Notes: a model not told the origin generated them from the letters alone. A DNA stretch of 64,000 nt from Sedimentisphaerales bacterium (GCA_963708075.1 OY970194.1:5248001-5312000); one strand, 5' to 3'. Shown: positions 28,615-48,536, counted from the first letter of the stretch. Translations and numbers: made by a program.

Positions 28615-29867
28615 ATGGTTCTGGGCAAGTACTCGTTTGGGATCGGGGATCGGTTCGGGCATCAGGGCAAGGCGCAACTGGCGGCTCTGATCGAGGCGAA
28701 CAAGCGCGGCGTCGAGATCACGCCGGTGTGGAACAAGTCGAATCGCGAGCACAGTATCATCGGCACCAAGCCGGCGCATGTTCGTCGCGAGGCGGATGCC
28801 GCCGTCGCCGCATGGAGCTGGAAGGGGCCTTACTTCGTCGATGCGGACCATATCGGTCTGTCCAATGTCGATGGGTTTCTCGAAGCAAGCGACTTCTTCA
28901 CGCTCGATGTGGCCGAGTTCATTGGTCGGTCGGCCCCGTCGGCGGACGTTGATGCCTTCGTGGAGAAGCACAAGCATCTTCTCGGTTCCCATCGGATCGA
29001 GGGGATGGATGCGCCCATGGAGATCGACACCGTCCGACTGAAGATTATCGCGTCGAAGTATCTCGCCGCCATGCGGCAGGCGGGTGTCATCTATCGCCAT
29101 ATCGAGGCGGTCAAAGGTCCCGGCACCTTCATCACGGAGGTTCTCGATGGATGAGAACCGACACGCCGCAGACACCCATTGAGATGTTCGTCATTCTCGC
29201 TGCCATTGCTGAGGAGTGGATTCCCGCCGAGACTATCGCCCCGAAGTTCAGCGGCCGATTCAATAAAGGCGTCGATTACGTCGGCGACGTGGAGCAGTTC
29301 GCCCGCGAGTTCGAGCAGGACCTGGCCGTGATCCGGTACGCGGTCCGTGAGTTCGGCCTGCCGGAGGGCCTCAAGCTCAGCGTGCACTCCGGCAGCGACA
29401 AGTTCTCCATCTACGCGCCGATTCGAAAAGCGCTCGGCAAATTCAATGCCGGCCTGCACCTCAAGACCGCGGGCACTACCTGGCTGGAGGAGCTGATCGG
29501 CCTGGCCCTGGCCGGCGGCGAGGGCCTGGCCATCGCGAAGGAAATCTACACCAAGGCCCTGGCTCGCATGGACGAGTTGTGTGGTCCCTATGTCACAGTG
29601 ATCGATATAGATCGAGGCAAGCTGCCTGTGCCCGACGCGGTCGCCAAATGGGATGGCGAGCGATTCGCCGCGGCACTGCGACACAATCCCTCATGCCCAC
29701 AGTACAACCCCCACTTTCGCCAGCTCCTGCACGTCGGGTACAAGATCGCCGCCGAGCTGGGCCCCCGTTTCACCGACGCGCTCGAAAAATACGAGCCCAC
29801 AATCGCGCAGCAGGTCACGACCAATATTTACGAAAGGCACATCCGCCCGCTGTTTCTGAAGGCATAG
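28615..29867 (+). CDS. uxaE: Tagaturonate/fructuronate epimerase (indels near 29140-29157)
   Basis: SFGIGDRF, DADHI, KLSVHSGSDKFS, HLKTAGTTWLE; two extra bases in the EVSMDET motif. Confidence 0.88.
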
Positions 29868-30081: not shown

Positions 30082-31218
30082 CTAGAGAAGCTCAACCAGG
30101 GCGGCGAAGGCGGTGAAACCGGCGCCGAAGGATAGGAGCAGGGCGCGGTCGTTCTTCTTGGGGCTGGCTTCTTCGAGGATCTTCTTGAGGACGAACATAA
30201 CTGTCGGGGAGGACATGTTGCCGTAGTTGCGGAATGTCTCGTAGGAGAACCGTAGTGTCTCCTCGGTCAATCCGAGATGTTTCTGGACGGCCATGAGGAC
30301 CTGCGTCCCGCCCGGGTGAACCGCCCACCATTGAATGTCGTCGGTGGTCAGGCCGTGGCGCTCCAGCAAGCGGCCCGTCGCCTGGGCGACGGCCTTGGCC
30401 CCGATCACCGGCACATTTCGCGTCAGCACGTTCCGCAGTCTTCCGCCCTGCGTCGTGTAGCGCAGTTGCTCGCGGTACCGCGGCAGTGTCACCGACTCGA
30501 AATCGATGAACTCCAGGAGCCCGCGTGTCTGGGCGGGTTTGAAACCCGCCCCTACGGGTCCGCGCACACTATTGGCAAAGGCCTTGAGGAGGCCACCCGT
30601 GGTGTCACCGTTCAAGTCCGCTTGCAGAATCGCCGCCGCGGCGCCGTCGGAGAAAATACTGTTGCTCACGATCAGGTCCGGGTCGGGCCCGAGGAAGAAG
30701 GTCGCCGAGCAGATTTCCACGGACAGGCACAGTACCGTCTTTCTCGCGCCGGATTGGATCATTCGGCAGCCGGTTTCGAGATTCGGGATCGCACCGCCGC
30801 AGCCCATGCCCATGAGGTCCAGTACGGCTGTATACGCGGGCAGGCCCAAGTCCTCGACGAGATAGGAGGACAGGCCCGGGCACAGGTAGCCCGTGCACGT
30901 GTTCACGATCAGGGCTTCGATCTGGGAGGCATCGAGGCCTGTCTGTTTTATGGCTGCCTCGGCGGCCTGGGCCGCGATGCGCCGACTGTGCCGGGCGAAT
31001 CGCGAGATCAGGAAATCCGCATCCTGTGAGCAGATCTCCTCATCCTCGTCTACGGAGATATACCGCCCGCGAATGGGTCCGTCCAGGAGCAACTGCCTGT
31101 ACAGCTCCCGTTCGCTCTGCTCCATGGGGAAGTGCGCCGCCATGAAATGGTAAATCTCCTCCTGCGTGGCGTATCGCCTGGGATTTGCCGTTGCCAGTGC
31201 GGACAGGATAGCTTTCAT
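30082..31218 (-). CDS. Type III polyketide synthase (chalcone synthase fold)
   Basis: Catalytic triad MGMGC / VHPGG / GNMSS; FGAGF; SVEICS. Confidence 0.95.
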   Translation of the reverse strand: MKAILSALATANPRRYATQEEIYHFMAAHFPMEQSERELYRQLLLDGPIRGRYISVDEDEEICSQDADFLISRFARHSRRIAAQAAEAAIKQTGLDASQIEALIVNTCTGYLCPGLSSYLVEDLGLPAYTAVLDLMGMGCGGAIPNLETGCRMIQSGARKTVLCLSVEICSATFFLGPDPDLIVSNSIFSDGAAAAILQADLNGDTTGGLLKAFANSVRGPVGAGFKPAQTRGLLEFIDFESVTLPRYREQLRYTTQGGRLRNVLTRNVPVIGAKAVAQATGRLLERHGLTTDDIQWWAVHPGGTQVLMAVQKHLGLTEETLRFSYETFRNYGNMSSPTVMFVLKKILEEASPKKNDRALLLSFGAGFTAFAALVELL

Positions 31219-31929
31219 CGCCCCTCCTTGCGGTCAAAACGAACGACGCCTGCGACGCGACAGAACCACGCTCGCCGGACTACGGGCGCCGGATCGTGCT
31301 TGCTCAGCATCCCGGCCAGCTCCGCCGGTTTGAAACCCCGCCGGATCGACAGCAGGGCATCGTGCCGCAGCTCAGGGTCGACACGCAGGGTCAGAATCGC
31401 CGCGACCACATAGTTCAGCCCACAACGATGAAGATCGTTGATCAGCAGCGCGTGTCGCACGAAGCCGCGCAGGTGCGTGATAAGCCGGTCGGTTCTCCTC
31501 GGCCGTGAAGTGGTGAAAAACCATGGAGCCGAGTGCGTAGTCGAACTCCTCGGGCGGCTGATACGTGAAAATGTCCGTCTGCTCCAGACGGATCGCCTTG
31601 CAGTGCGCGCGGGCAAGGGACTCTTTTGCCATCGCGAGCACCTGGGGATTGTGGTCGGCACACGTGAATTCCACGCTATGGCCCTGGTTGGTCGCCCACT
31701 GTGTAATGGCCAGCGGGATATCGCAGTCTCCGCCGCCGAGGTCCAGGATCTTAACTGTCCGCCCGGCAGGGAAATTGGGCAGCTCGCGTTCGAGGAATTT
31801 GCGGACGACGCGAATACCGCCGCCGACGTGATTGACGAATTTGATGAATCGAAAGCTCTCCTGTGTCAGCCGCGGGTCGCTGTCGGGTCGGTCCATGAAT
31901 TCTTCGCCGCGCGCTCGCTGTTTAAGCAT
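31215..31929 (-). CDS. SAM-dependent methyltransferase of type III PKS clusters (frameshift near 31495)
   Basis: R...EEFMD, ILDLGGGDCD, FHHF, INDLHR, HDALLSIRRGF; split over two ORFs. Confidence 0.88.
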
Positions 31930-33118
31930 CCCACAGCCCTCCATCGACGAGAGTCTGTGCGGCGTGTCTCATCCGACTCAACTGCTGCTCGCGAAACGCC
32001 GGATCGATTGTCACTGCCTTCGCCGCGATGTCGTCACAATAGCGGCAGTCCTCGCAGGAAAGGTGCGAGCATCGGCGCTGCTCGAATCCGTGGATGAAGT
32101 CCGCCGGAATCCGGCTCGTGTCGATGCGAAAGGGGTTTCTGTCCAAAGCGAATAACATGCCTTGCTCCCTGAGCATGGCGTAGAACGGCCTGAGCTTCCA
32201 GGGCCCGATCTGGCCCGGCCGCAAGAAATGGCGCAGCAGCCAGAAGCGTTGTTTCTCCGGCGCCTTTGTGAACCCGTACGGCAGAATCAGCTCGGCCAGG
32301 TTCTCGCCTGAAGTCCGGCTGCTGTAGGCTTTCACCCGCCTGAGCAACTCCGCAGAGGGTATGCCCCTCTCCAGGAGCTTGAAGTGCTCATAACCCAGTT
32401 CCTCGTAAAAGCGTACATCTTCCGGCCGAATCCAGCCGGCCTTGATGAGCATGGAAGGATCTTCGAGGCGTTTCATGGTGCAATTCAGGAAACAGTAGTC
32501 GATGAACAGCTCGCGCGAGCCGTCGGAGCTGTGTGCGAAGCCATTCTGGTGGTACGGCTGCATCGCGCAGTTCGGCAGGCACGGATGATTCGCGATCAGT
32601 TGCAGTTCACCGTCAACGGCTTGGCGGATCGCCCGTAGCGTGGTGAAGTCCCGGTTGATCGAGAAGCTCTCCAGCGTCAGTGCGTCAGCACCGAGGTTTC
32701 GCCAGAACCGTGCCCGCCGGGGCGTGTCGATCTGAGCGTAAATCCCGACCTTGACGTAAAACTCGGGGAACGCTGCCTTTATGCGCTCCAGCAGGTAGGG
32801 CGTGGAGATCGTGAATCGCCGAATCCCCATGCCGGCCAGCCGGTCGAGCAGACGCATGAGCTTTTTCTGCCAACCCCGGCTCCATTCGCGATTGCCTGAG
32901 CACGAGCTGTTGAGCAGGTAGTTGAAACTGATGTCATGACGTTCGAGCTCGGCCACGTAGGCAGCCAAGTCCCTCTTCGTCAGCGGCGTGCCCATATAGC
33001 TGGGCCGCCCGCCCCCGACGAGATCGGCCGGGAACTTGCCGTACACCTCCGCGACCGGAAAGCCGGCCAGCTCCGCAGCCAACTCGCCATCGTAATTGGC
33101 CGCTACCGAAAGCTTCAC
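31922..33118 (-). CDS. Peptidase U32-family Fe-S protein (putative O2-independent hydroxylase)
   Basis: GGGRPS, YLLNSSC.GN, NRDF, ANHPCLPNC, DYCFLNC, WIRPED, HFKL, C-terminal CSHLSCEDCRYC; GGAGG before GTG 33118 (alternative ATG 33130). Confidence 0.85.
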   Translation of the reverse strand: MKLSVAANYDGELAAELAGFPVAEVYGKFPADLVGGGRPSYMGTPLTKRDLAAYVAELERHDISFNYLLNSSCSGNREWSRGWQKKLMRLLDRLAGMGIRRFTISTPYLLERIKAAFPEFYVKVGIYAQIDTPRRARFWRNLGADALTLESFSINRDFTTLRAIRQAVDGELQLIANHPCLPNCAMQPYHQNGFAHSSDGSRELFIDYCFLNCTMKRLEDPSMLIKAGWIRPEDVRFYEELGYEHFKLLERGIPSAELLRRVKAYSSRTSGENLAELILPYGFTKAPEKQRFWLLRHFLRPGQIGPWKLRPFYAMLREQGMLFALDRNPFRIDTSRIPADFIHGFEQRRCSHLSCEDCRYCDDIAAKAVTIDPAFREQQLSRMRHAAQTLVDGGLWDA

Positions 33119-33430
33119 ATTTCCCTCCATCTATCACCGGCGATACCCGAAAAGACGTGAACCATCCCTCGGGCCGCACGGCTGTGTCATTCTAAGCAGC
33201 GATGGTCGCGTCAAGCGCAAGCCTGCCGACGCCCCACCCGCTCTATATACAGGCGGATTGCCTGCCGGGCTGTAAGAATGGCGCGCCATTGGACAATTGG
33301 CAACTCAGGCTTTTCCTACACCGTCTCGTAAACTGGCGACACCATACTCAATCCAGGACCGAAGATCGAAATAAGTAGGGTCTCTCCGGAATTCAACGTG
33401 GAAGGCTCACGGTGCCAAGGAGTTAGAGCC

Positions 33431-33889
33431 ATGAAACGCAAAGCCTTATGCTGCAGCATGTCGTTGTTGGTTATCGCCTTGGGATCAGGGTGCCGGATGG
33501 CCGGGCTGATTCGAGAGAATACCGAAGAAATCAAGGCCACGAACCAGGCAGTTTCCAGAAACACGACAGCGGTCGTCGCCACAACGCAGACCATGCAAGA
33601 CCTCGAATCGGCCTTGCAGCCGGTGAGTTCACTGAAAGAGCCCATGCAGGACCTGGCGGCGCTGGGTCCGACGTTCAATAAGGTGGCCGATCTCGACGGC
33701 CCCATGAAGGAATTGGCCGGCCTGCGGGACCCGATGGTGCAGCTCAGCCGGCCCGTGTCGGTCCTCACCCGTCTGACTCCCGTGCAGCTCGCCGCATCGG
33801 TGATTCTCACCATGCTTGCCTTCTTCGTGCTCCTCTTTCTAACGATCTGGGCCGCCGTCCGCCTGGCTTTACGCCATCGTCCTGCTTGA
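33431..33889 (+). CDS. Lipoprotein with C-terminal TM helix, unknown function
   Basis: GSGC lipobox, L..PM..LA.L repeats. Confidence 0.6.
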   Translation: MKRKALCCSMSLLVIALGSGCRMAGLIRENTEEIKATNQAVSRNTTAVVATTQTMQDLESALQPVSSLKEPMQDLAALGPTFNKVADLDGPMKELAGLRDPMVQLSRPVSVLTRLTPVQLAASVILTMLAFFVLLFLTIWAAVRLALRHRPA

Positions 33890-34216
33890 AGCGGCTGTTC
33901 CCGTTATTCCCCCGTTATTCCTAATCGCGCCGCCCGGAGCGAGTAATTCCTGATTCAGGACCCCGTCTATTACTCCCCGTCTACCCTTCGGTTACAGAAA
34001 TACAGCATTTCTCTTCACAGAATACAGTATCCACCTTGTTTGTATGTTGGAATGCCGACGGTACCGTGAAGTTTCGAGATGTTCCGAAGCTCTAATGGCC
34101 GGGGAAAGGAAGTGGTCGGCATGCATTGAGAGAAGAAAGCCTGAGGCAAATGTGACAGCTTACTAACCAAACAAACCATGTATATTCAACCCATCTCAAC
34201 TCGAAAGGGGAATGCC

Positions 34217-35239
34217 ATGAAGAAGTATATGCTTTTGACAGTCGTAGCCGCCTTTGGCCTGCTGTCGGTTACGGTGTCAGTCCCAGTTCTCCAGGCGACT
34301 GCGGGGGGCAACACATCAAAGGACTCATCAAAGGACTTCGTTCCGCCGATCGTATTCCAGGCAGCCGGGCCGACCGTAGCGTCAATTCAGGGCACGGTCG
34401 ATGCGTTCCGCGCTGCTCTAGGGAACCCCAACAACGGCAACGCGCCGGGGCCGCTCGCCGGCGGTCGCCGCGAGATCAACTGGGACGGCGGGGGCAACAA
34501 CCAGACCACGGCGGTCGCCGGGAACCCATTCGCGGGCTTTCAGGCCATACGCGGCGCACTGTTCACGACGCCGGACGGGACCGGTTTCGTGCAAGCTCCT
34601 CCTACCGCCGATCCGGCTCTGTTCCCGCCGGGGGGGCTGGCCGGCCTGTTTGACAACCCGACGTACGGGATCATCTTCACCGCGTTCAGCCCGCTGCGGC
34701 TGTTCAGCGCCATCGATAGCACCATCACGGAAGTGGACTTCTTCGTGCCCGGCCCCGACGCCGACAAAAAACCAGCGACAACCACCGCGTTCGGCGCTGT
34801 CTTCACAGATGTTGACCAGCCGGATGGGAGCGGGCCTGGCAAGAAGCACGAAGACCATAGCACCGACACGCTGAGCGAGTACTCGGGTGCCGACACCGGG
34901 TTCGACGCTGCCTCCACAGAGGTTGACCAGGCGGGTGGGAGCGAGCATGGCAAGAAGCATGGAAACCGTAGCGCCGGCACGCTGATCGAGTACTTCGATG
35001 CCGACGGCGAGTTGCTGTTCAGCAGCGTCGTCCCGGCCTCGCCGGGCGATGGGAGCCTTTCCTTCTTCGGCATCCTGTTTGACGACGCGTGCATCGCCCG
35101 GGTGCGGATCACGAGCGGCAACGCGGCCCCGGGGCCGGATGATGATGGGAAACGAGACATCGTCATGATGGATGACTTCATCTACGGCGAACCACAGGCC
35201 TGCGGCTGCGACTCATTGGTGACACTCACCGATAAATAG
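34217..35239 (+). CDS. Secreted REINWDG-motif protein with internal duplication
   Basis: Signal peptide; GRREINWDG, FGAVFTDVD, MDDFIYGEP. Confidence 0.7.
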   Translation: MKKYMLLTVVAAFGLLSVTVSVPVLQATAGGNTSKDSSKDFVPPIVFQAAGPTVASIQGTVDAFRAALGNPNNGNAPGPLAGGRREINWDGGGNNQTTAVAGNPFAGFQAIRGALFTTPDGTGFVQAPPTADPALFPPGGLAGLFDNPTYGIIFTAFSPLRLFSAIDSTITEVDFFVPGPDADKKPATTTAFGAVFTDVDQPDGSGPGKKHEDHSTDTLSEYSGADTGFDAASTEVDQAGGSEHGKKHGNRSAGTLIEYFDADGELLFSSVVPASPGDGSLSFFGILFDDACIARVRITSGNAAPGPDDDGKRDIVMMDDFIYGEPQACGCDSLVTLTDK

Positions 35240-35336
35240 TAGTCCATAATAGGTGGCTGTCCCGAAGCTGGGGTCAGGGGTCATCCATATAGGGGGGGCA
35301 GAGGTGTGCGTCAGGGGTCAGGGTCAGTGGGCGTCA

Positions 35337-36374
35337 GGGGTCAGGCTTTGGATTTTGGTGTCCGCAGGGCCTGCCATAGTTTGGCGTTCCGCCGTGTCTT
35401 GTTTTCTTGAGCGACGGCCTTGCTGACGCCATAGATGTTGCCCATGTGCATGGCTTCACTGAACCAGCGATTTGTGACGGCACAGTGCCGCTTGATCCAG
35501 CCGGCAAGGACCACCTTCCATGGAGCCAGCTTTCGGTCTGACGACAGGTCCGCCCCCTTCTTGCCGAGACGCCGCAGACCCTCCTCCAGAAGCGTCTCGG
35601 CTCGTTCCTCCCCATAGCCGGTCCGACCCGCCCCTTCGCCACAAGCAAGATGGCCTTTGTCCAGTTCTTTCACCAGGGCTCTCTTGCCCTCGCGAGTCCC
35701 GATGTACCAGCCCCGGCACAACTGCTGATGCAGCACCGACCGGCGACGGGGATTCCCTTCCTCCGCCATGGCCAGATAGCGATGGTAGCACCGCATCCCC
35801 GCCGCTGTGGGCCTCAGGTCCCCGGCCACGTACAGCCAGTCCGCATTCTCCAGACACACCGGACGCACGCGCTGGAAGAACTTTGGAAAGCTGCTCAGCT
35901 CATGGTCTTTAAGGGTCTCGACGCTTTGGAGGCCCGCCCGCACGGGATTGAGGTGAATATAGTTGACCACCCGCAGAAGCGACTCGCCGCGCTCGATCAA
36001 TAAGGCCTTGTATCGCCCCTGGAACACATGGCCGCGCTCCCTCACGAGCCGGTTGAACCGATTCGCAAACGTGCTTTGCAGCCACTGCATCCCGGACGCC
36101 AGACGGCCGTCGGGCGTCTCCACGCACAGGTGATAGTGATTCGACATGAGCACGTACGCATGCAGACGCCAGCCAAAACGCTCGCACGTGTCAAACAGCG
36201 TCCGCTCAAAGCAGACGCCGGAGTCCTCGACCGTGAACAGGTCCCGTCGGTAGTTGCCGCGATTTAGAACGTGGTACACGGCTCCGGCATATTCAATTCT
36301 CGATTGGCGAGGCATGACCAGAGACTACCGCTCATCGTCCCTCATAGCAACACCTAAATCCAAAGCCTGACCCC
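35337..36374 (-). mobile_element. TIR-flanked Y1 tyrosine transposase element
   Basis: 25-bp IRs GGGGTCAGGCTTTGGATTTTGGTGT (35337-35361) and ACACCTAAATCCAAAGCCTGACCCC (36350-36374), 1 mismatch. Confidence 0.88.
35341..36315 (-). CDS. RAYT-like Y1 (HUH) transposase with C-terminal extension
   Basis: YHVLNRGN, MSNHYHL (HUH), GHVFQGRYK, YIHLNPVRAG (catalytic Tyr). Confidence 0.95.
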   Translation of the reverse strand: MPRQSRIEYAGAVYHVLNRGNYRRDLFTVEDSGVCFERTLFDTCERFGWRLHAYVLMSNHYHLCVETPDGRLASGMQWLQSTFANRFNRLVRERGHVFQGRYKALLIERGESLLRVVNYIHLNPVRAGLQSVETLKDHELSSFPKFFQRVRPVCLENADWLYVAGDLRPTAAGMRCYHRYLAMAEEGNPRRRSVLHQQLCRGWYIGTREGKRALVKELDKGHLACGEGAGRTGYGEERAETLLEEGLRRLGKKGADLSSDRKLAPWKVVLAGWIKRHCAVTNRWFSEAMHMGNIYGVSKAVAQENKTRRNAKLWQALRTPKSKA

Positions 36375-36385
36375 CCCTGCCCCCC

Positions 36386-36901
36386 CCGGACGCACGCGCT
36401 GGAAGAACTTCGGAAAGCTGCTCAGCTCATGGTCCTTAAGGGTCTCGACGCTTTGGAGGCCCGCCCGCACGGGATTGAGGTGAATATAGTTGACCACCCG
36501 CAAAAGCGACTCGCCCCGCTCGATCAATAAGGCCTTGTATCGCCCCTGGAACACATGGCCGCGCTCCCTCACGAGCCGGTTGAACCGATTCGCAAACGTG
36601 CTTTGCAGCCACTGCATCCCGCACGCCAGGCGTCCGTCGGGCGTCTCCACGCACAGATGATAGTGATTCGACATGAGCACGTACGCGTGCAGACGCCAGC
36701 CAAAACGCTCGCACGTGTCAAACAGCGTCCGCTCAAAGCAGACGCCGGAGTCCTCGACCGTGAACAGGTCCCTTCGGTAGTTCCCGCGATTCAGAACGTG
36801 GTACACGGCTCCGGCATATTCAATTCTCGATTGGCGAGGCATGACCAGAGACTACCGCTCCCCGTCCCTCATAGCAACACCTAAATCCAAAGCCTGACCC
36901 C
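36386..36901 (-). pseudogene. 3'-truncated second copy of the Y1 element
   Basis: Near-identical to 35859-36374 including the TIR; breaks into a poly-C tract. Confidence 0.9.
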
Positions 36902-37144
36902 TTTTCCCCCTTTTCCCCTTTTCCCTTTCCTTTTCCCCCCTCCTCCTCCTTTTCCCCTCCCCCGGAGCGCCCTGAATTGAGTATGGTGTCCCCCGGCAGA
37001 ATTCAACTCCGGGTGGCAGCGTCAAGCGCAGCTTGGCGATGGTCTTCGCCGTCCGGGACCAGGCCAAGACCGTTTGTGAAATGTGTAGGTTTGACCCCCG
37101 GCTAGGCCTAGAAATCTGTATCCATCTGCTGGGAACTGGGAACA

Positions 37145-37229
37145 GGGTCAACTCTTGACATCTGACGCGATCATCATCGATTGAGAATTCGCCCGTTACT
37201 CCGTCTGTCAAGTGTCAGGAGTTGACCCC
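37145..37229. mobile_element. Miniature GGGTCA-ended inverted-repeat element
   Basis: GGGTCAACTCTTGACA ... TGTCAGGAGTTGACCC (15/16). Confidence 0.7.
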
Positions 37230-37256
37230 AATCCCCCACCCGTTATTCCCGCCGGG

Positions 37257-37688
37257 TCATTCGTACCGCAGCATGCAGAAGCGGTTGCCGCATCCTTTGC
37301 AGCAGGTGAAATGGGTCAGGACCAGATTCCCGGCAAATAAGACCAGGAAAGCAACGAGCAACAGCGGTTGTCTGACAAGCCAGTACAGCGGAAACAGTGC
37401 GACAAAGCCGAAGAACACAGCTACGGCCAGCAGTTCCCCTCCGGTATACGCCCCGGCGGCGCGCTTTGGCATCATGCCGGCCACAAGGCCCATGACGACG
37501 CGATTACACTGGTCATGGACCGGGCATTTCGCACAGAACGCATAAACGAACACCAGCCATACGATGATGCCTCCGACCAGATAGATGCCCGCCGCGGCCG
37601 CTGAGTACCGAGAGATGCCGTACAGTCCGGCAATGACCGAACCGGCAAGCAGGCACAATGCGCTAACACCAGGGAGTCTTCCGGCCAT
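37257..37688 (-). CDS. Small Cys-rich 4-TM membrane protein
   Basis: AAGGAG RBS; CAKCP..C and CCKGCGNRFC. Confidence 0.7.
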   Translation of the reverse strand: MAGRLPGVSALCLLAGSVIAGLYGISRYSAAAAGIYLVGGIIVWLVFVYAFCAKCPVHDQCNRVVMGLVAGMMPKRAAGAYTGGELLAVAVFFGFVALFPLYWLVRQPLLLVAFLVLFAGNLVLTHFTCCKGCGNRFCMLRYE

Positions 37689-37757
37689 GATCTATATTCT
37701 CCTTTCTATCATGCGCCATGCCGCAGGAACGAAAACGGGATCTGTCCCTAGCCATCC

Positions 37758-37912
37758 CGACCGTGAACAGGTCCCTTCGGTAGTTCCCGCGATTCAGCAC
37801 GTGGTACACGGCTCCGGCATATTCAATTCTCGATTGGCGAGGCATGACAGAAGACTACCACTCCTCGTCCCTCATAGCAACACCTAAATCCAAAGCCTCA
37901 AAGCCTGACCCC
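37758..37912 (-). pseudogene. Third, shortest 5' fragment of the Y1 element
   Basis: First 29 codons + leader + TIR with an 8-nt stutter CAAAGCCT. Confidence 0.9.
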
Positions 37913-38050
37913 TTTTCCCGACACAAATGAATAGGCGACCGGATCGCTCGTGATCGCTGAGCCGTGTTGCACTTCGAGTGTTAATGCGCCTCTAGCCCTA
38001 GCCGCCTCTAATGGGTGTATTTTTCCGGCTCACGTGGTCGGAAGTACAAC

Positions 38051-38860
38051 CTATCTGTGTCGGTACTTATCCTCAAGGGAACGTGACTTGTTGGCAACCT
38101 CCCTACGCTCAATGGGACGGATGTACAACTCCTTCATAACGTGCTCCAGTATCTTATATGCGTCGAGCAAATCCTCCTGCTTTATGGTGGAATGATGGCT
38201 TGCTTGATTTCCTATGAACCTAATCCCGTGGAGTAGCTTGGCATCAGGGAACTTCTTCTCAAAGAGGCGTATGCGATCAACCAATTTGAGGAGAACCGAA
38301 CCATCGCTGCCAGACTCCTTCGTAGACTCAACTTTTTGGTCGTCAAGCAATGCCTCTACACTATGCCGAATCGCGTTACCGCAGGACGCAGGGTCAGAGA
38401 AGAATGTAGAAAAGGAACGCGTGATTTCATTCCGCAGACTCTTGGGATACCGGTCACCTAATCGAATCATCGGCAAAGGTGGTGTGAAGTACTCTGGCAA
38501 AATCCGAGTGCGTACGGGAAAGCCTCGTTCTTTCGCCAGTTTTGAAGGAATGATCGCTTTGCCCACCACAATTGCAGTCTCGTGGCATGACTTGCATCTC
38601 AGAAAAGCAGAGAACTTCGCCTGCACTTCGTTCATGGACTTCACAACCTTCCCGAGAACCAGGAATGCACTGAGAAGGAGATGGGACTCGAAGTCGATAT
38701 CCTCGAAGTCCTTTTCGTCGTACTGTTTCTGCAACTCTCTGAAGCGAACATCGTTCTTTTTAAGTCGCAATACTCCATCGGAACAGTAAGGGCACGGCAG
38801 TTCGGGGAATGTATCAATGCCACAGAAGGACTTGATCTGGTTCACGATCTCTTGATTCAT
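38051..38860 (-). CDS. DUF4145 (HEPN-like) protein with zinc-ribbon motifs
   Basis: CPYC, CKSC, IRHSVEALLD, RFIGNQASH; visibly lower GC. Confidence 0.8.
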   Translation of the reverse strand: MNQEIVNQIKSFCGIDTFPELPCPYCSDGVLRLKKNDVRFRELQKQYDEKDFEDIDFESHLLLSAFLVLGKVVKSMNEVQAKFSAFLRCKSCHETAIVVGKAIIPSKLAKERGFPVRTRILPEYFTPPLPMIRLGDRYPKSLRNEITRSFSTFFSDPASCGNAIRHSVEALLDDQKVESTKESGSDGSVLLKLVDRIRLFEKKFPDAKLLHGIRFIGNQASHHSTIKQEDLLDAYKILEHVMKELYIRPIERREVANKSRSLEDKYRHR

Positions 38861-38935
38861 ATGAGTTCTCTCCGGCCAACAGGGCCCTCATGCTCCCATC
38901 GTCGCACATTCGCCACGCGTGTGTCCCTGGAGACA

Positions 38936-38964
38936 ATTATCCCGCGTACGCGCGGGAGAGGCAA
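38936..38964 (-). promoter_or_regulatory. Sigma70-like promoter (repeated module)
   Basis: TTGCCT-17-GATAAT; related copies at 39611-39638 and 40356-40385. Confidence 0.55.
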
Positions 38965-39084
38965 GAGAAAAGTGAATGGGAGGGACTGATTCGGACAGGA
39001 TGTGTGTGAGGGAAGATTCTAGCTTCGGGGGGGCAGACCCCAGTTTCCCCGAACCCACTTGCCGGGGAATCTGGGGACACCATA

Positions 39085-39217
39085 TAATGGCACTAAGTTA
39101 AGGGAATCATGGCTAAGAATGCGTTTTCTCTGCTAGCGAAATCACCGAGATTTCCCATCAAACGAGGGTCTTGCTGGGACTCGAAAGCGGTCAATTACGC
39201 TTAACTTAGTGCCATTA
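39085..39217. mobile_element. IS4-type MITE (133 bp)
   Basis: Perfect 18-bp IR TAATGGCACTAAGTTAAG; 11-bp flanking direct repeat GGGACACCATA/GGGACGCCATA. Confidence 0.82.
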
Positions 39218-39496
39218 GGGACGCCATACTCAATGCGGAGCCGAAATAAGTAACATGTCCCCGGAATTCCTTTGTGGGATGTTATGCTCAATTTGGGTTG
39301 AAGTGAGTGAGGTGTCCCGCGATGCTCGGGAGCTCATTCTAAGGACTGCCCTTCGAAATCGCCATAAGTCCGGACTCTCGAAGTACCTCGGACTTCCCGT
39401 CGTCCCTTCTTATAGCGTCGGACTATTCCCCTAACAGTAATTCTGGAATTCTGGGGACACAATACTTATTCCCTCGTCCCATCGACGCTTTGATTG

Positions 39497-40396
39497 GGCT
39501 CTCCAACTCGTTCACTCATCGCACTCATTTCGACTTCTCAACATTCATATGACCCGCCTTGGGCTCCAACTTATTCGTCGCAGGTTGATCCGGGGCGTCT
39601 TCCTGAGAGTATTATGGCAGTCAAGGGCGGGAAGGCAAGGGAAAAGCGACAATGGAAAAGTGATATGTGATAAGTGATAGGGAAGCAGGGACAATGCTGG
39701 GGCAAGCCGTGCCCTACAGGCCGAAGTAATTCCGGAGATATCACACTTATTTCCTCGTTCTCATCGGTGGTTCCGGCGGGGTTTGCGCTTCTGCGGCTTA
39801 TTCTCCTATGACAAAGAGGCCGAATATCATGAGGCCCAGAGATGTAAAACCGCCGGCCAGGGAGCTGAGGATCCACTCGGCGCCGGGGCTCTTTGGGGCC
39901 AGGGCTACCAGAAGGCGGCGTAACCGGTCGGTGAATGCCGGTGGCGGGTATACCCTGTTGATCAGGCATTCGGCGGCGCCGAGCATCAGGATGCAGGCCG
40001 TGATGAGGGACGCGATGGCTGTGTACAGCATCCATTTGTGGCCGGAGGTCGTGTAGAGGGTGTTCAATAGCGTGACTTCGCCGCCCGTCATGGCCAGAAG
40101 AAAGGTGACCCATGTCTTGAGAAAATCGAGACGCAACTGGACTCTTGTTTCATCGCTGAGGGTCATACGCGTCCTCTCGGGAACAATAGAACAACAGGGA
40201 CCATTGCTTGTTCGACTCCTATTCTATCGCGCTCTCCTCTCGGCTCTCCAACTGCCGCACCTATCGTACGCATCCGGACCTCTCCACATCCATACAACTC
40301 GCCTCGGGCTCGAATTCATCAATCACGGGTTGATCCGGGGCGACTTCCTGGGAATATTATGGCGGGGGCAAGGGCGGGAAGACAAGGGAAAAGCCC
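39497..40396 (-). repeat. Two copies of a ~150-bp promoter+leader module (39497-39646, 40242-40396)
   Basis: Collinear similarity from GGCTCTCCAAC through GGTTGATCCGGGGCG to CAAGGGAAAAGC. Confidence 0.75.
39798..40166 (-). CDS. Small membrane protein of unknown function
   Basis: GAGG RBS; three hydrophobic segments. Confidence 0.6.
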   Translation of the reverse strand: MTLSDETRVQLRLDFLKTWVTFLLAMTGGEVTLLNTLYTTSGHKWMLYTAIASLITACILMLGAAECLINRVYPPPAFTDRLRRLLVALAPKSPGAEWILSSLAGGFTSLGLMIFGLFVIGE

Positions 40397-40508
40397 TTGG
40401 ATTGATGATCGATGATTGGGAAGGGAAGTGGGAAGTTTGATGTTTGAGGTTTGAAGTAAGAGGGTCGGGCGGCGGGGTGCCGGGATTGCGGATGTGCGAT
40501 TGATGACC

Positions 40509-40657
40509 GGGGACGCTGTCCCCGGACCCCTGGCATTTTTCGCTTTCTGCCAGCAGCATGATAGGAGAGCAATGTGAGGCGATGAGTCCATGGCTTCCGG
40601 CTGACATGCTATTGGCCCAAGGCGGCAAATGCCGGGGGTTTGGGGGCAGCGCCCCCG
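40509..40657. repeat. Palindromic IS-end-like repeat
   Basis: GGGGACGCTGTCCCCGGACCCCTGGCATTT ... AAATGCCGGGGGTTTGGGGGCAGCGCCCCC imperfect inverted repeat. Confidence 0.6.
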
Positions 40658-41001: not shown

Positions 41002-41964
41002 ATGGCGAAGATCGCGTGTTGTCACAACTGCGCGTACTCGTACTGCGACCACGAGCATGCGCTGTGGAGCATGTCGGTCGGGGTGCTGACCTGGCCGGCG
41101 TGCGCGAACCATCCGGAGTCGTACGGGGTGATGCGGCGTGTGCCGCAGCGCGGGATCTGCTCGAACTACCGGGCGAAGGCCGGCAAGCCGGAAGGCGATG
41201 TCAAACAGATTCCCCTGGGCGACGGGTTCTACGCCTACGTGGACGCCGCGGACTATGAGTGGCTCAGCCGGTGGACCTGGCACCTGGGTAGCGGATACGC
41301 CTATCGGGTGGAGAAGAGAAAGGTGGTGATCTACATGCACCGCCAGATCATGCAGCCGCCCAAGGGGATGGTCGTCCACCACAAGAACCGCAACAAGCTG
41401 GACAATACGCGGGGGAACATGGAGAACGTGACGCCGGCGGAGAACACGCGCCAGCGAGCCAAGAAAAGGAATGCCTCCTCCCGGTTCTGGGGCGTCAGCT
41501 ACACCAAGAGCCGCGCCAAGTACCATGTTTCCGTCCACCACGAAGGGAGACTCTTCGCCTGTGGCTACTTCGCGGACGAGATCGAAGCGGCCCGGGCGCA
41601 CGACTACAAGGCGGTCGCGCTCAAGGGCGAGGCTGCCCGGCTGAACTTTCCCAAGGAATGGCCGCCGGAACGACGGGCGCAGGTCTATGCCGAATTCCAG
41701 GCGCGCCTCAAGAGAGAGGGGAAGAATGTAGGGAGGAAGGGAGGTAAGACAGGCAGGCGATCCCGGCCTGGGGACACGGGTCGTAAACAGCGAGCTATGT
41801 CCGCCAGGCCACGAGTGACCGGCGACGGGGGACGCGACAAGGTAAGACGAAGAAGGCAGAAGGCGAAAGGCAGGACTGAGGGGCCCGACGCAAGACGCAC
41901 AAAGCACGAGGCTGGACGAGGTGGGGTAAAGGCAAGAGCGCAAAAGGTCAAAGGAAACAAGTGA
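41002..41964 (+). CDS. HNH endonuclease + AP2 DNA-binding domain, Cys-rich N-terminus, low-complexity basic tail
   Basis: GAGGAGG RBS; MHRQIM...HHKNRNKLDN...N (HNH_3); RFWGV...GYF..E.EAARAHD...LNFP (AP2). Confidence 0.9.
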   Translation: MAKIACCHNCAYSYCDHEHALWSMSVGVLTWPACANHPESYGVMRRVPQRGICSNYRAKAGKPEGDVKQIPLGDGFYAYVDAADYEWLSRWTWHLGSGYAYRVEKRKVVIYMHRQIMQPPKGMVVHHKNRNKLDNTRGNMENVTPAENTRQRAKKRNASSRFWGVSYTKSRAKYHVSVHHEGRLFACGYFADEIEAARAHDYKAVALKGEAARLNFPKEWPPERRAQVYAEFQARLKREGKNVGRKGGKTGRRSRPGDTGRKQRAMSARPRVTGDGGRDKVRRRRQKAKGRTEGPDARRTKHEAGRGGVKARAQKVKGNK

Positions 41965-42049: not shown

Positions 42050-42700
42050 GGTGCGGCTGGTATTCGGTGGCGGCGTATAGCCGCCGTGTGCGGACTGCGC
42101 CTCTTTCGTCCCTTACGGGACTGGCTTTTGTCCTTGGCCCCGGTTTCCCAGCGATGAATCGCTGGGCTATTCTCTGTCGCCCTTCGGGCTTGAACTGCGC
42201 CCGGACGGGTCGATCACCATCCCGCAGGTGTTGCGGCTATTCTCTATCGCCCTGCGGGCTTGGACTGCACCTCTTTCGTCCCTTACGGGACTGGCTTTTG
42301 TCCTCGCCCCCGGGTTCCCCAGCGATGAATCGCTGGGCTATTCTCTATCGCCCTTCGGGCTTGGACAGCACCCGGACGGGTCGATCACCATCCCGCAGGT
42401 GTTGCAGCTATTCTCTGTCGCCCTGCGGGCTTGGACTGCGTCATGGCTGAGCTTCGTGATACTGCCAAATTGAAGGCTATCCTCTATTGCCCTGCGGGCT
42501 TGGACTTCGCTCCAGTCCTCTTGCGTCGGCCCATCCGCCCCACAGGGGCGATCGACAATAGCCCACCGTTTCAACGGTGGGTACCGGTAGCCTATCACAT
42601 CCCAAAGCCCCGCAGGGGCGAAAGAAGACTGCGGTGCGCTCTTGTGTCGGGTGCAATCCGAATCCGCCACCAAATGCCGACCGCACCCGCTTGGGGGCGG
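42050..42700. repeat. Composite REP/BIME-like element with internal ~170-bp tandem duplication
   Basis: Unit GGACTGC(G/A)CCTCTTTCGTCCCTTACGGGAC...CCCTGCGGGCTT occurs twice (about 42092 and 42262); inverted homolog at 9105-10650. Confidence 0.85.
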
Positions 42701-42847: not shown

Positions 42848-45358
42848 GTGAAGAGGACGAAACGATCGCGCGAGCGGCGGCTGGGGAAAGAGGCATTTGG
42901 GGCGGGGGCGAAGGCGGCGTTGCTGTGCCTGGGCATGGGCGTTTGCCTGTTCCTGCTGTTCAGTTGCCTGAGCTTTCATATTGCCGACTGGCCGAGCCGG
43001 TACGTGCAGCCGCACAATGAGCCGCCGGCGAACTGGTGCGGCTCGATGGGTGCGTTCTCCGCTTACTACCTGATTTACTACATCGGCCCCGGCGCGTATA
43101 TCCTCCTGATCGCGACCATTGGTTACTGCTTTGCCAAGCTGGCCCGCCGGCCGGTCGGCCAGCCGATATTCCGCATCATCGGTCTGGTCCTGCTGACTGC
43201 GGCGGCCTCCTGCACGTTCTACTGTTTCTGGCCGCATAAGAGGTATCCGTTCCCCATGGGCTCGGGCGGAGTGCTCGGCGTCTGTTTGGCGGGCCTCCTC
43301 CGGGCCAACTTCGCCACGCTCGGCACGTTCATCCTCGTCACCGCGACGTGGGTGGTCGGCTTGGCCCTGCTGGCCGACAGCCTGATTGTCAGTATGTTCG
43401 CCGCCGGTGGGATCGCCATACGGAAGCTTGTGGGCGTGCTGGTGCCCGCCTGGGCGGTCGCCAAGGAGAACTCCGAAGCCCTCGGCAGCATTTGGCAAAG
43501 GCTCAGTGCCCGGCAGAAAGGGCTCGCGACAGAACGTCGCCGGGAACCAGTGCCTGCCCCGGCGTCGGGTCCTGTCCAGTATGTCTCGCCGCAGATCGAG
43601 GAGTCACAGGAAGAACCCGAGCCCGTGGAGGCTGCAGAGCCTGTGGAAACGCCGGTGCCTGTCCCCGCCAGGCGGCCGGAGATCGCCGAAGTCAAGCGTC
43701 CTCCGGAGAGGCGCGAGCAGCCGGCGTATGTCCAGCCGGCTTATGACGACTACACAATGCCGCCGCTGGACCTGCTGGCCGAAGGCGAATATGGGTATGC
43801 GTCTCTCCAGGAACAAGTGGTTAAGGCCAAGGCGGCGGACTTGGAAAAACTACTGAGCGAGTTCAACGTGAACGCTCGCGTGGTCGCTTCCGAGACCGGG
43901 CCGGTCGTGACTATGTTCGAGCTGGAGCTGGCGGCCGGCGTCAAGGTCAGCCACATCTCCAGTCTCTCCAACGACATCGCCCGGGCCCTGGGCGCCGGCG
44001 CGGTCCGCGTCGTGGCCCCGATCCCCGGCAAGCACACGATCGGCATCGAGGTGCCCAACAACGAGAAGGAAAAAGTCCGAATGCGCAATATGATGGAACT
44101 CGCGGGCGACCGGCCGCGGCAAGATGCAGATCCCGCTGTTCCTGGGCAAGGACTCCTCCGGCGAGGCCCTGGTGTCGGACCTGACGAAGATGCCGCACCT
44201 GCTGATCGCCGGCACCACTGGCAGCGGCAAAAGTGTCTGCATCAATACCATCATTGTCGGTATTTTGATGACCAAGCGGCCGGACGAGGTCAAACTGATC
44301 CTGGTCGACCCAAAAATGGTCGAAATGACAGCTTTCAATACCGTGCCGCACCTGATGTGCCCGATCGTGACGGAGACGCAGACGGCGGTGCAGATTCTCG
44401 AATGGGCCACCGTCAAGATGGACGAGCGTTACGCCCTGCTGGCCGAAGCGAAGGTGAAGAATATCGCCGAGTTCAACAAGCTCGGCACGGAAGAGATTAT
44501 CGCCCGTTTCAATCCGAGCACGCCGGACGAAGAGGCGAAGATCCCCAAGAAGCTGCCGTACATCGTGATCGTCATCGACGAGCTGGCCGACCTGATGATG
44601 ACGGCCTCCAAGGAAATCGAGGCCTACATCGTGCGACTGGCCCAGAAGAGCCGGGCGATCGGCATCCACATCATCCTGGCCACGCAGCGCCCGCAGGCGA
44701 CGGTCGTGACGGGCCTGATCAAATCGAACATGCCGTGCCGCGTCGCGTTTCCGCGTGGCCGCCCGCATGGACAGCCGCATCATCCTCGACCAGAACGGCG
44801 CCGAAACCCTCCTCGGCGAGGGCGACATGCTCTTCCTCAAGCCCGGCACGAGCGATCTTATCCGGGCCCAGGGCACATTCCTCGACGACGCGGAAATCAA
44901 GCCGGATCATCAAGCACCTCAAGGAGGTGGCCGAGCCGCAGTTCCATCCGGAGCTGACGCAACTGCGCAAGGTCGATGCCGCCGATATGCCGAAGGACGA
45001 TTTGTTCGACGAGGCGGTCCGAGTCGTGCTCGAGAGCAAACGCGGCAGCGTGTCGCTGCTCCAGCGAAAGCTGAGCGTCGGCTACGCCCGCGCCTCGCGG
45101 ATTATCGAGATGATGGCCGCCGCCGGCATTCTCGGCGAGTACAAGGGCAGCCAGGCCCGCGAGGTCCTCATGACGCTCGAGGAATACGAAGCCGTTCGCG
45201 ACCAGATGAACAAAGACGCCGAAGCGGGTTTTGCCGACCTGGCCGAAGAGCCCGGCGAACAGGATGCCGCACCTGCCGAGCCGACCGAGAAAGCCTACGC
45301 CACCGAAGGCCAGCAAGGCTACGTCTCCACCGACATCGAGGAAGAAGAGGACGAGTAG
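42848..45358 (+). CDS. ftsK: DNA translocase FtsK/SpoIIIE (three compensating indels)
   Basis: 4TM N-terminus, GPVVTMFEL, GTTGSGKS, IDELADLM, ATQRP, SLLQRKL; motor motifs in shifted frames between about 44120 and 44905. Confidence 0.95.
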   Translation: MKRTKRSRERRLGKEAFGAGAKAALLCLGMGVCLFLLFSCLSFHIADWPSRYVQPHNEPPANWCGSMGAFSAYYLIYYIGPGAYILLIATIGYCFAKLARRPVGQPIFRIIGLVLLTAAASCTFYCFWPHKRYPFPMGSGGVLGVCLAGLLRANFATLGTFILVTATWVVGLALLADSLIVSMFAAGGIAIRKLVGVLVPAWAVAKENSEALGSIWQRLSARQKGLATERRREPVPAPASGPVQYVSPQIEESQEEPEPVEAAEPVETPVPVPARRPEIAEVKRPPERREQPAYVQPAYDDYTMPPLDLLAEGEYGYASLQEQVVKAKAADLEKLLSEFNVNARVVASETGPVVTMFELELAAGVKVSHISSLSNDIARALGAGAVRVVAPIPGKHTIGIEVPNNEKEKVRMRNMMELAGDRPRQDADPAVPGQGLLRRGPGVGPDEDAAPADRRHHWQRQKCLHQYHHCRYFDDQAAGRGQTDPGRPKNGRNDSFQYRAAPDVPDRDGDADGGADSRMGHRQDGRALRPAGRSEGEEYRRVQQARHGRDYRPFQSEHAGRRGEDPQEAAVHRDRHRRAGRPDDDGLQGNRGLHRATGPEEPGDRHPHHPGHAAPAGDGRDGPDQIEHAVPRRVSAWPPAWTAASSSTRTAPKPSSARATCSSSSPARAILSGPRAHSSTTRKSSRIIKHLKEVAEPQFHPELTQLRKVDAADMPKDDLFDEAVRVVLESKRGSVSLLQRKLSVGYARASRIIEMMAAAGILGEYKGSQAREVLMTLEEYEAVRDQMNKDAEAGFADLAEEPGEQDAAPAEPTEKAYATEGQQGYVSTDIEEEEDE

Positions 45359-47085: not shown

Positions 47086-47233
47086 AGAAGACGCTCCTCA
47101 TAAATTGGTCTTGGTCATTTTGAATTCCACGGACAGCTTACCGGTTCTGGTTCTGTAATGAGTATGGCGTCCCCCGTTCAGATTCCCCTAGATTCTCATG
47201 TCCAGATTCCTGCGTTCAGATATCAGCATGTGA

Positions 47234-48256
47234 TCACGCGGTGCTCCCATTGTTTTCAGCTAAGGACGGTTCCAGATTATCTAGCAATTCTTGGCATTGG
47301 CCGCAGTAGTAGTATCCGGTTTCGATCATCTTGCAACGGTACGGATACTTTGCCGGTCGTCGTTTCGCAAAGTCAAATCGCAGCCGCAGAGAATGATAGA
47401 GTTGTTCATCTATATAGAGCTCGGCAAATGCATGCCTCTTGTTCTTCGCATGTTCCTTAGCGGTATTGTCAATGGCCCAGACTTGAGCGAAAGGTAACCC
47501 CAGGGTATTCAGGCACACGTGATTACCGGAGTCTGATATATGAGAAAGGGGGTCGTTGTAGTATTCATTGCTGCCTTGCGACAAGACGGCATGCGTTCTC
47601 AAGCCGAGGATGTCCTCATATACATTCTGGATGCGCCGAAAGACCTGAAGGAAGACTTCTGGTTTGTAGGTATTCTTGATATCGCTCCGATAATGCCCCA
47701 CTGTCCAGTTGCTCTTCAGGAGAAGAGAGTCAGCAAATGAAATGAATAGTATGTCGGGATAAGCCGCCGCGAGCCCATCAACTGCCATACGCAAGGCGAG
47801 TAACTTCTCCCTGGAGATACTGCCAGACCGAAGTGCATCCGCGAAATCGTCTGCGTCCACAAGGCAGAAGATAGAATATGATCTAAGATAGAGAAGGTCA
47901 AGCCAAGCTGTCTTTACAAATATATGGGGCTTCTCGTCACACTGCCAACACCCGACGCATGTAATGAACTGGTCCTTGGGAAGCGAGATGGCAACTTCAT
48001 GGTATCTGGTAGATATGTTTGGATACCAATCCAGCTCCATTGAGACGCTGTTGATTTCCCTGACAGTAGCAAAGCCAACATACCCAACGCTTCGGTCAGG
48101 ACCACCGGCAAAGAAATCAAGCTGTGCACGCTCCCACTCGAGCATGTATTCCTCCCCGATGAGGTAGCAATCCCTATCGAGGGGAACTCTCTCATAAGTG
48201 TAGACGTCAAACTTCTCGTGATCGAACATTCTCTTCACTGATTCCCGATGTGCCAA
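47234..48256 (-). CDS. Low-GC hypothetical protein, C-terminal half resembles class III nucleotide cyclase fold
   Basis: FCLVDADDF, ISFADSLLL, LRTHAVLSQG, LGLPFA, LYIDE; alternative start ATG 48229. Confidence 0.55.
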   Translation of the reverse strand: MAHRESVKRMFDHEKFDVYTYERVPLDRDCYLIGEEYMLEWERAQLDFFAGGPDRSVGYVGFATVREINSVSMELDWYPNISTRYHEVAISLPKDQFITCVGCWQCDEKPHIFVKTAWLDLLYLRSYSIFCLVDADDFADALRSGSISREKLLALRMAVDGLAAAYPDILFISFADSLLLKSNWTVGHYRSDIKNTYKPEVFLQVFRRIQNVYEDILGLRTHAVLSQGSNEYYNDPLSHISDSGNHVCLNTLGLPFAQVWAIDNTAKEHAKNKRHAFAELYIDEQLYHSLRLRFDFAKRRPAKYPYRCKMIETGYYYCGQCQELLDNLEPSLAENNGSTA

Positions 48257-48319
48257 CGACGATCAGGTAGTTTCTTCATCGCACTTCTCGACCATGGAAA
48301 AGACTCAAATCCGTACGTT

Positions 48320-48502
48320 TTACATTTCTGGGCGGCCGAGTTCTTTGGCTGGTTGAATCCACTCGTCGATGACTTTCTCCGCGTTGGCGACCGCCTCGGC
48401 ATAGGTAGGGCCATCCGCCATGCAGCCCGGCAGTTCGGGGACCTCTACCACAAACGACTGATCCTCCTCACTCCAATAGATGATCATCTCGTATCTACTC
48501 AT
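48320..48502 (-). CDS. hicB: HicB-like antitoxin, probably C-terminally truncated
   Basis: YWSEED..FVVEVPELPGCMADG.T..EA; ends GRPEM instead of the usual GRPIPEP. Confidence 0.8.
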   Translation of the reverse strand: MSRYEMIIYWSEEDQSFVVEVPELPGCMADGPTYAEAVANAEKVIDEWIQPAKELGRPEM

Positions 48503-48536
48503 TTTCGTCTGCTCCGCAGATCAACGAGCTCCGTCG

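Follow-up and report, generated by a model that had tools for sequence, protein, structure and literature searches.

We analyzed a 64,000-nucleotide window of the closed 7.5-Mb genome of a Sedimentisphaerales bacterium (GCA_963708075.1, OY970194.1:5248001-5312000), whose positions are used throughout, and in which single unrelated genes lie among short GGGG-bearing repeats around a Y1 HUH transposase gene. We read this locus as a patchwork in which the ends of several families of TIRtrons, elements with a RAYT-like transposase gene between terminal inverted repeats (TIRs), were joined about 10 nt outside their GGGG motif to unrelated DNA, likely by HUH transposases and one end at a time; we put the probability of this reading at roughly 0.6. 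Its observed basis is the pairing of the repeats with Y1 genes, their mobility, a boundary outside the motif, tandem duplications at the tails, unrelated flanks and a bias of foreign DNA toward the tail side. The initial annotation had described a cassette-like array bracketed by GGGG(A/T)CA ends and had proposed an integron-analogous locus of gene capture; we confirm the observation, and the interpretation is partly supported.

Every motif listed in that annotation was found where it had been placed, and the motif excess holds: 33800-40600 has 14 GGGG[AT]CA sites where the genome-wide rate predicts 1.85, and 27 GGG[AT]CA sites where it predicts 7.7. When GGG[AT]CA was mapped over the whole genome in 7-kb bins (mean 7.9, 99th percentile 15), the bin with most of the locus was the richest of all, with 22 sites. 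When all motif sites were clustered, 93 of them fell into six end families, and four more profiles raised this to 149 ends; as profile background, one strand of the reversed genome gave 3 matches. Allowing up to 3 mismatches, 15 family-profile ends lie in 33130-40600, 0 in 1-30000 and 2 in 43000-64000, and about 13 more degenerate ends were recognized in the locus by eye. Families are mixed, as 45/93 ends have another family within 3 kb (permutation mean 3.8, maximum 19). The ends of the locus belong to several families, and many of the supposed orphans are parts of two-ended mini-elements of 12-190 bp; the locus also holds two truncated 5′ transposase copies and duplicated pyrimidine tails outside the ends, which had escaped the initial annotation.

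The central gene (35341-36315, minus strand) was correctly described as a Y1 transposase carrying ends: it encodes 324 aa, matches PF01797 (E 8.7e-12) and has terminal inverted repeats of 25-26 bp. Its match to NF047646 (E 1.6e-19) is below the cut-off of that model. Residues H60, H62 and Y119 are invariant in 10/10 aligned relatives, and the records that hold its closest relatives carry Phycisphaerae, Sedimentisphaerales or Planctomycetota in their titles. An AlphaFold model with a predicted local distance difference test (pLDDT) value of 75.7 had TnpA-REP (4er8, E 3.8e-7) and the TnpA proteins of ISDra2 and IS608 as its best fold matches. In the accessible passages of Di Nocera et al. 2013 (PMC3733652), TIRYTs are RAYT-like genes with terminal inverted repeats carrying GGGGWSAS, the repeats also occurring as singles, dimers and clusters. 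Quentin et al. 2018 equated them with TnpA-Y1 subclass 2.1, found in about 15% of bacterial species and having, according to the accessible parts of that work, a C-terminal helix-turn-helix-like domain (Bac_DnaA_C, HTH_23, HTH_28) (PMC6006769). Group 1 RAYTs, the same subclass, show the top duplicate rate among true RAYTs, about 6%, in the accessible text of Bertels et al. 2017 (PMC5581495). The repeats studied here start with GGGGTCAG, carry GGGGWSAS and are also dispersed. This end has 13 copies genome-wide, and the ten profile groups together count 149 ends; the 5′ end lies 51-68 nt before the start codon in 39/43 loci with a called 5′ end. The subclass 2.1 motifs NH[YF]H, FQ and Y[IV]HLNP are present. 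The C-terminal region gives no Pfam helix-turn-helix match in 10/10, and at about 234-318 the model shows, with good confidence, a bundle of helices. In those published features that were tested, the enzyme is of TIRYT, or TnpA-Y1 subclass 2.1, type.

The host genome encodes other intact enzymes of the same kind, flanked by other end families seen in the locus. The initial annotation had the central transposase recombine the ends to build up genes; rearrangement breakpoints do lie at ends, but several transposase families encoded elsewhere in the genome own these ends, and the central gene therefore cannot be the sole actor. The integron integrase model TIGR02249 gave no match over its cut-off in the closed genome.

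Comparison of copies places the working boundary of the elements about 8-14 nt outside the GGGG motif, which is newly found here. A sister element with two copies at 99.6% in the host genome agrees for 7-8 nt beyond each CCC, and then the copies part. The genome G184, reached through a locus titled Opitutales (L141), has 68 ends of one family, 66 of them in the regions covered; its tails agree for 10-11 nt in front of 16 and 17 distinct flanks (two main tail types) and then diverge, and among the matches listed most element-to-element alignments end 9-14 nt outside the motif. As the shared sequence runs past GGGG and then stops, the motif is internal and each end has a pyrimidine-rich tail. 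Breakpoints had been expected at the motifs; the joints are indeed tied to ends, but fall outside GGGG rather than at it. The ends are inverted copies of each other, and neither a self-hairpin nor a GTAG foot is evident in them by eye. Near-identical elements occupy many sites, and one family, with many copies at 97-99.7% in G184, appears to be active there.

The tails are also where tandem duplications begin. Counting an exact 8-mer that starts at the tail and is repeated within 45 nt, we found duplications at 22/93 ends and 136/8421 other motif sites (Fisher p 7e-19), while controls gave 0-3/93 at shifted positions, a mean of 1.5/93 after shuffling and 0/158 at sites of three other repeat families. 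The test was then applied to 30 other loci out of a set of 54; those of G184 and short fragments were set aside. A 5′ end could be called at 29 of the 30, and here duplications occur at 24/70 ends against 8/218 in the control. Assemblies with short-read contig names gave 10/29, and G184 15/66 ends. Tail-anchored duplications span 8 to more than 500 bp, the long ones measuring 527 bp in the window, 240 bp in the relative G018 and 289 and 432 bp in G184, and the tail is always one boundary and an internal point the other. In G184, a duplication of at least 22 kb (93%; C1:992331 onward and 2796316 onward) begins in a TIRtron 3′ end and is possibly a flank transduction; its far boundary was not reached, and it is not counted as evidence.

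Flanks could in part be traced to their sources. In the host genome, DNA matching the outer flank was found elsewhere for 27/93 ends, and for 20 of these the match starts within 40 nt (shifted controls 4/92 and 5/92). In G184, a source was traced for 24/66 ends (20 distinct joins), with joins clustering at 11-14 nt and further out where tails are duplicated, and 15/24 lie inside open reading frames (ORFs). At 2.78-2.80 Mb of G184, tails mark where the pieces between elements begin or stop, and relatives carry these pieces at separate sites; the right flank of one mini-element is found upstream of its left flank in 5/5 relatives. Judging from these comparisons, the two ends of one element join unrelated DNA. 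No fixed target duplication was found, as 20/21 G184 elements have 0-7 bp (mismatched controls 0-9 bp) and 1 has a 345-bp direct repeat, and two other G184 regions gave no plain empty site. A precise, integron-like form of the capture proposed earlier does not agree with these imprecise joins, the joins inside genes, the lack of an integrase match, the mixed orientation of the cargo and the absence of matching ends from this variable site in 12/15 relatives.

The five cargo genes, here called passengers 1 to 5, are the single unrelated genes of the initial annotation: two have signal-like N-termini (from sequence), two are hydrophobic and membrane-like and one encodes a DUF4145 protein. They had been described as bracketed by the ends; they lie between tails, outside the repeats and not inside repeat pairs, with passengers 2, 3 and 4 between facing tails and passengers 1 and 5 with a tail at their start only. 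They are not co-oriented (two plus, three minus). Genome-wide, 25/43 gaps of 300-3500 bp between ends are tail-facing, with a median GC of 0.525 against 0.607, and 19/25 are bounded by different families, whereas 5/8 inward-facing gaps hold transposases. Because tail-facing geometry arises partly from ends coming in pairs, we turned to 55 lone ends, which avoid this problem, and found a GC of 0.553 on the tail side and 0.589 inside (p 4e-6). Among 1-kb windows, 51/130 of those below 53% GC lie within 2 kb of an end, against 159/6304 of those at 58% GC or more, and low-GC DNA adjoins 49% of tail flanks, compared with at most 4% for three other abundant repeats and 7% for a fourth. The expected GC shift thus appears as lower-GC foreign DNA on the outer side of the ends, although the lower GC ascribed to some of the cargo holds clearly for the DUF4145 gene and the spacers and not for the 340-aa gene (0.60-0.70). 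Of the proteins from intervals of this kind, 10/35 have a Pfam match, several of them defence-like or toxin-antitoxin-like.

The passengers are strain-specific and mostly of unknown family. Passenger 3 was not found in 250 genomes across the class with this query; the DUF4145 gene and passenger 5 DNA were not found among the matches listed for 23 genus members, nor the DUF4145 gene in 150 family members, nor passenger 2 DNA in 23 genus members. The passengers of two other arrays in the host genome gave no gene-length match in the genus except transposases, one widespread gene and one 440-bp piece, and a plasmid search of 72,556 records returned one distant match only. Homologues of passenger 1 were located at other sites in G013, G002, G011, G001 and G057.

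The clearest case of one gene bracketed by different end families is passenger 2. Its homologue at L243 (90% over 33999-35229) has other neighbors, a different upstream end and the same downstream junction; that at L247 (79%) has facing ends of a third family on its two sides and the same first nucleotide as L243; and that at L244 (89%), whose start lies behind a degenerate end, has an attC-like half downstream. Together with the window copy, these start behind four different ends within about 20 nt. Integrons consist of an IntI integrase with attI and attC sites, and L248, a relative of passenger 2, has a full hairpin that we take to be attC-like from its structure. Presumably of the same kind is a hairpin right behind a TIR tail in G011 (L017, reverse strand 6031-6105), which adjoins a membrane-protease-like gene. 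Among 53 loci with passenger 2 homologues, profile ends occur at 2 and an RYYTAAC box at 4, with L244 and L246 judged by eye. These findings suggest an integron-like past for passenger 2. An Rfam search gave no match, and a 70-nt piece at 37921 was rejected as an attC half because it folds weakly and is the fixed-boundary end of a longer repeat. Overall, gene accretion at the ends is supported.

The site itself turns over among relatives, as the initial annotation had anticipated for its cargo. The interval between the U32 peptidase gene and ftsK is shorter than 300 bp in G018 and G006 and holds other content in G005 (5.3 kb), G013 (7.9 kb) and G011 (10.2 kb); for ten further relatives the ftsK side of the interval was covered. 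We read the cargo of these intervals as including insertion sequence (IS), Fic, PIN, RhuM-like and DUF1016-like genes.

For the patchwork we propose a mechanism modeled on the chemistry of IS200/IS605 and TnpA-REP. The enzyme would recognize the terminal repeat and nick about 10 nt beyond TG(A/T)CCC, on the strand reading TG(A/T)CCC, leaving the 3′-OH on the element. This 3′-OH might then be joined to single-stranded DNA at another site, for which a pyrimidine seems to be nearly all that is required; if the target lay close by upstream, a tandem duplication would result, and if it were distant or incoming, a fusion. Two-ended mini-elements could act as linkers between pieces, and selection would keep those joints that spare a whole gene and its promoter, producing the cassette-like look. 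That selection rather than precision gives this look is proposed because young joins in G184 often lie inside genes, while the old joins here come with whole genes.

Several points weigh against the patchwork reading. Matching ends are present in 3/15 of the relatives' intervals and absent in 12/15, and some profile seeds came from G011, which favors that genome; the 5.3 kb of G005 and three genes in G016 come with no matching ends. As the site varies mostly without such ends, it is a general hotspot, of which the ends are one builder and not the cause. Passenger 1 homologues occur elsewhere without ends, yet the G013 match starts exactly at the tail (33394), and a passenger 3 homologue in G180 (82%) also has no such ends. 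No activity, intermediate or fresh excision was seen, and the tail-facing geometry follows in part from the pairing of ends in mini-elements. The low GC on the tail side fits capture, but it also fits an insertion of ends into existing islands with a later one-sided deletion, and the pyrimidine at the donor start in 17/20 distinct G184 joins is inflated by chance alignment into the C/T-rich tail. ORFs in the join and gap counts were called mechanically, and the related genomes are not independent.

These points feed the view that foreign genes reach a tolerant site by other routes, and that TIRtrons and mini-elements insert later and trim the site by adjacent deletions, so that the ends mark the genes and do not deliver them. 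The other cargo of the relatives' intervals, the occurrence of passengers 1 and 3 without ends and the integron-like past of passenger 2 all agree with it. By itself, however, it predicts neither the one-sided GC asymmetry at lone ends nor a start point of passenger 2 that is shared by four different ends, and it sits poorly with the joining of native DNA from distant loci to tails and with the scarcity of low-GC DNA beside other abundant repeats; we regard it as rather unlikely. Far less credence is due to the idea that duplications and partial copies are assembly errors or slippage at pyrimidine tracts, without the enzyme. The tails are C/T-rich, the genome has frameshifts typical of long reads (ftsK is split) and no contig of the best-matching run reaches across the triplicated transposase, but the partial copies differ by 3% and 9%, the duplications are seen again in a contig of another run and in assemblies whose contig names are of short-read type, base-shuffled tails rarely show them and duplications of 240-527 bp need a non-homologous joint, making an artefact highly improbable.

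A true integron analogue, in which a gene and a mini-element leave together as a single-stranded circle, excised between two like-oriented tails, and then enter precisely at a different tail, with the mini-element in the role of attC, would account for the alternation of pieces with short imperfect palindromes, for the strain-specific and partly defence-like or toxin-antitoxin-like passengers and for the promoter modules that read through ends into passengers 4 and 5. It would also explain why passenger 2 has one downstream junction but different upstream ends in the window and at L243, why its first nucleotide is the same behind two families (L243 and L247) and why its relatives are followed by attC-like hairpins, but a common start point may also result from repeated trimming up to the promoter. 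The joins inside donor ORFs speak against this analogue, as do the mixed gene orientation and a 70-nt repeat cut at three points behind three ends. No flank was found behind two different tails among the 66 G184 ends of the loci covered. Contigs of four runs gave no circle or empty-site joint and no excision joint skipping a passenger, although these contigs do not span the locus and the uncovered parts are uninformative. We consider a precise analogue quite unlikely, and we return to the patchwork reading for the layout of the locus (Table 1).

Table 1. Features of the locus in window coordinates
Feature	Position	Strand	Remarks
Degenerate two-ended mini-element, GGGGACACCATACTC family	33336-33394		Right tail joined to leader of next gene, whose G013 homology begins at 33394
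Passenger 1, 152 aa	33431-33889	+	Signal-like N-terminus, C-terminal hydrophobic segment; no Pfam/NCBIfam match
Short right end with duplicated tail	33893-33920	+	3 nt past stop codon; possibly a cryptic end
Degenerate right end, GGGGTCACGTC family	33940-33987	+	Duplicated tail faces passenger 2; by eye against family consensus
Passenger 2, upstream region and 340-aa protein (ATG 34217)	33988-35239	+	Signal-like N-terminus; last codons and stop supplied by adjoining mini-element
Two-ended mini-element, GGGACAGTCACC family	35218-35263		
Tail-to-tail joint, piece of another end family, stacked TGACCC duplications	35264-35336	-	Behind transposon 3′ end
Complete TIRtron	35337-36374	-	Repeats 35337-35361 and 36350-36374 around the Y1 HUH gene; stop codon inside terminal repeat
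527-bp tandem copy of TIRtron 5′ half (97%)	36386-36901	-	One boundary at tail, other at internal CC
Repeated pyrimidine tails, right ends of two more families (36992, 37097)	36902-37144	+	
Very-high-copy intergenic repeat piece	37011-37043 (within 36902-37144)		Unrelated to TIR families
Two-ended mini-element, GGGGTCAACTC family	37145-37229		Right tail faces passenger 3
Passenger 3, 143-aa hydrophobic protein	37257-37688	-	Between facing tails
12-bp two-ended mini-element	37737-37748		Tail on either side; by eye
Third copy of TIRtron 5′ end, first 44 codons (91%)	37758-37912 (truncated transposase copy 37758-37919)	-	
Cut-off 3′ piece of unrelated ~200-nt repeat	37921-37990	+	Joined to tail of third copy
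Passenger 4, DUF4145 protein, 269 aa	38051-38860	-	GC 0.49
Promoter/leader module copy 1	38867-38965	-	Reads through degenerate end into passenger 4
Run of mini-elements and ends	39030-39480		39030-39040; 39074-39262 with inner 18-bp inverted repeat; 39318; 39454-39480 with duplicated tail
Promoter/leader module copy 2	39497-39647	-	
Passenger 5, 122-aa hydrophobic protein	39798-40166	-	Ribosome-binding site joined to duplicated tail 40179-40197
Promoter/leader module copy 3	40242-40394	-	Reads through tail-bearing end into passenger 5

Some rows gain from comparison with other sequences. The G011 homologue of passenger 1 has a similar 9-mer after its stop codon, without CCC or tail. Of the passenger 2 homologues, 63/77 end 4 residues past a YGEP motif, while the window copy ends 14 residues past it. 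In G011, the GGGGTCAACTC family abuts a 41-nt remnant of passenger 3 at the same site, and GGGTCA at 37254, which overlaps the stop codon and is common to this remnant, is doubtful as a true end. The piece 39062-39232 is multi-copy in G015, G011 and G013. The ~200-nt repeat is cut at different points behind three different ends in the host genome; its right boundary is sharply fixed in at least 15 places in the host genome and relatives, and it looks like the end of another mobile element. The promoter/leader module is about 150 nt long and conserved, with low-complexity DNA upstream, and besides its three copies here is found at many sites genus-wide, where it immediately precedes either small genes that are unrelated or a TIR end; G016 has three genes led by three copies of it, with no matching end.

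Around the locus, a conserved operon borders the hotspot at 30082-33130 (minus strand), with a U32-like peptidase, a methyltransferase and a type III polyketide synthase. An HNH endonuclease gene at 41002-41964 is multi-copy across the genus and often adjoins TIRtrons, and 42050-42700 is a very-high-copy intergenic repeat unrelated to the TIR families. A second tail-facing unit of the window (47173-48964) holds a 334-aa ORF without a Pfam match. The frameshift-split genes at 42848-45358 (ftsK) and 28615-29867 probably reflect long-read errors.

The resemblance of the locus to an integron is loose and somewhat one of outcome only, and a precise integron-like cassette system is not supported. 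Alike are the stacking of whole accessory genes between short imperfect palindromes, the promoters reading across the joint and one passenger family that also lies beside attC-like hairpins; different are the lack of IntI above the cut-off, an HUH enzyme in place of a tyrosine recombinase, the several end families, the two-sided imprecise joints at non-site DNA and the mixed orientation. In the one-ended transposition of IS91/ISCR and the mosaic building of IS26-type elements, a single end moves or fuses neighboring DNA. The ends described here would similarly act alone and build mosaics, but both ends are alike, the new DNA lies beyond the tail and the enzyme is a small Y1 protein, not a Y2 rolling-circle or DDE one. 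With IS200/IS605 elements (IS608, ISDra2) and REPtrons, the TIRtrons share the fold of the Y1 HUH core and, as their mechanism is generally understood, the absence of a fixed target duplication; they differ in their symmetric, apparently non-hairpin terminal repeats, non-contiguous flanks and duplications at the ends.

The TIRtron family itself, its repeats and its enzyme class are already known. As in the accessible passages on TIRtrons and TIRYTs, we found a RAYT-like gene, inverted repeats with GGGGWSAS and dispersed singles, dimers and clusters, while an outside boundary, tail duplications, a flank analysis and passengers do not appear in those passages, which leave activity to future assays (PMC3733652). 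Similarly, the accessible parts of the work on subclass 2.1 and Group 1 RAYTs (PMC6006769, PMC5581495) agree with our enzyme in NHYH, FQ, YIHLNP, a long C-terminal extension and an apparent lack of REP hairpins, but our enzyme has 324 aa against a subclass median of 238, its C-terminal tail lacks a Pfam helix-turn-helix match, and the copies are many at 97-99.7% in G184, with two sister copies at 99.6% in the host genome. A literature search, mostly without subscription papers, found TIRYT named only in PMC3733652 and PMC6006769 and no paper on the action of the enzyme; supplementary repeat lists may show the tails. New here are the boundary outside the motif, the tail duplications, the independent joining of ends, the passengers between facing tails, the low GC on the tail side and a cargo gene that different end families bracket in other sequences, in some of which attC-like hairpins follow it.

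A wider proposal, which we offer tentatively and hold to be doubtful, is that TIRtrons are a distributed, integrase-free means of gene capture in Planctomycetota and Verrucomicrobiota. Several Y1 enzymes would each nick next to the ends that belong to them, generate new passenger units at arbitrary positions, swap units between end families through single-stranded circles of a gene and a mini-element, recruit even former integron cassettes and place units under promoters reading out through the ends; about 40% of the low-GC DNA of the host could have this origin. Our results offer testable substrates, with an expected place of the nick, an expected appearance of the products and, in G184, a genome with an active family. 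If ends join arbitrary single-stranded DNA independently, this would be an unusual mode of transposition and an overlooked route of gene acquisition, which integron and IS finders miss.

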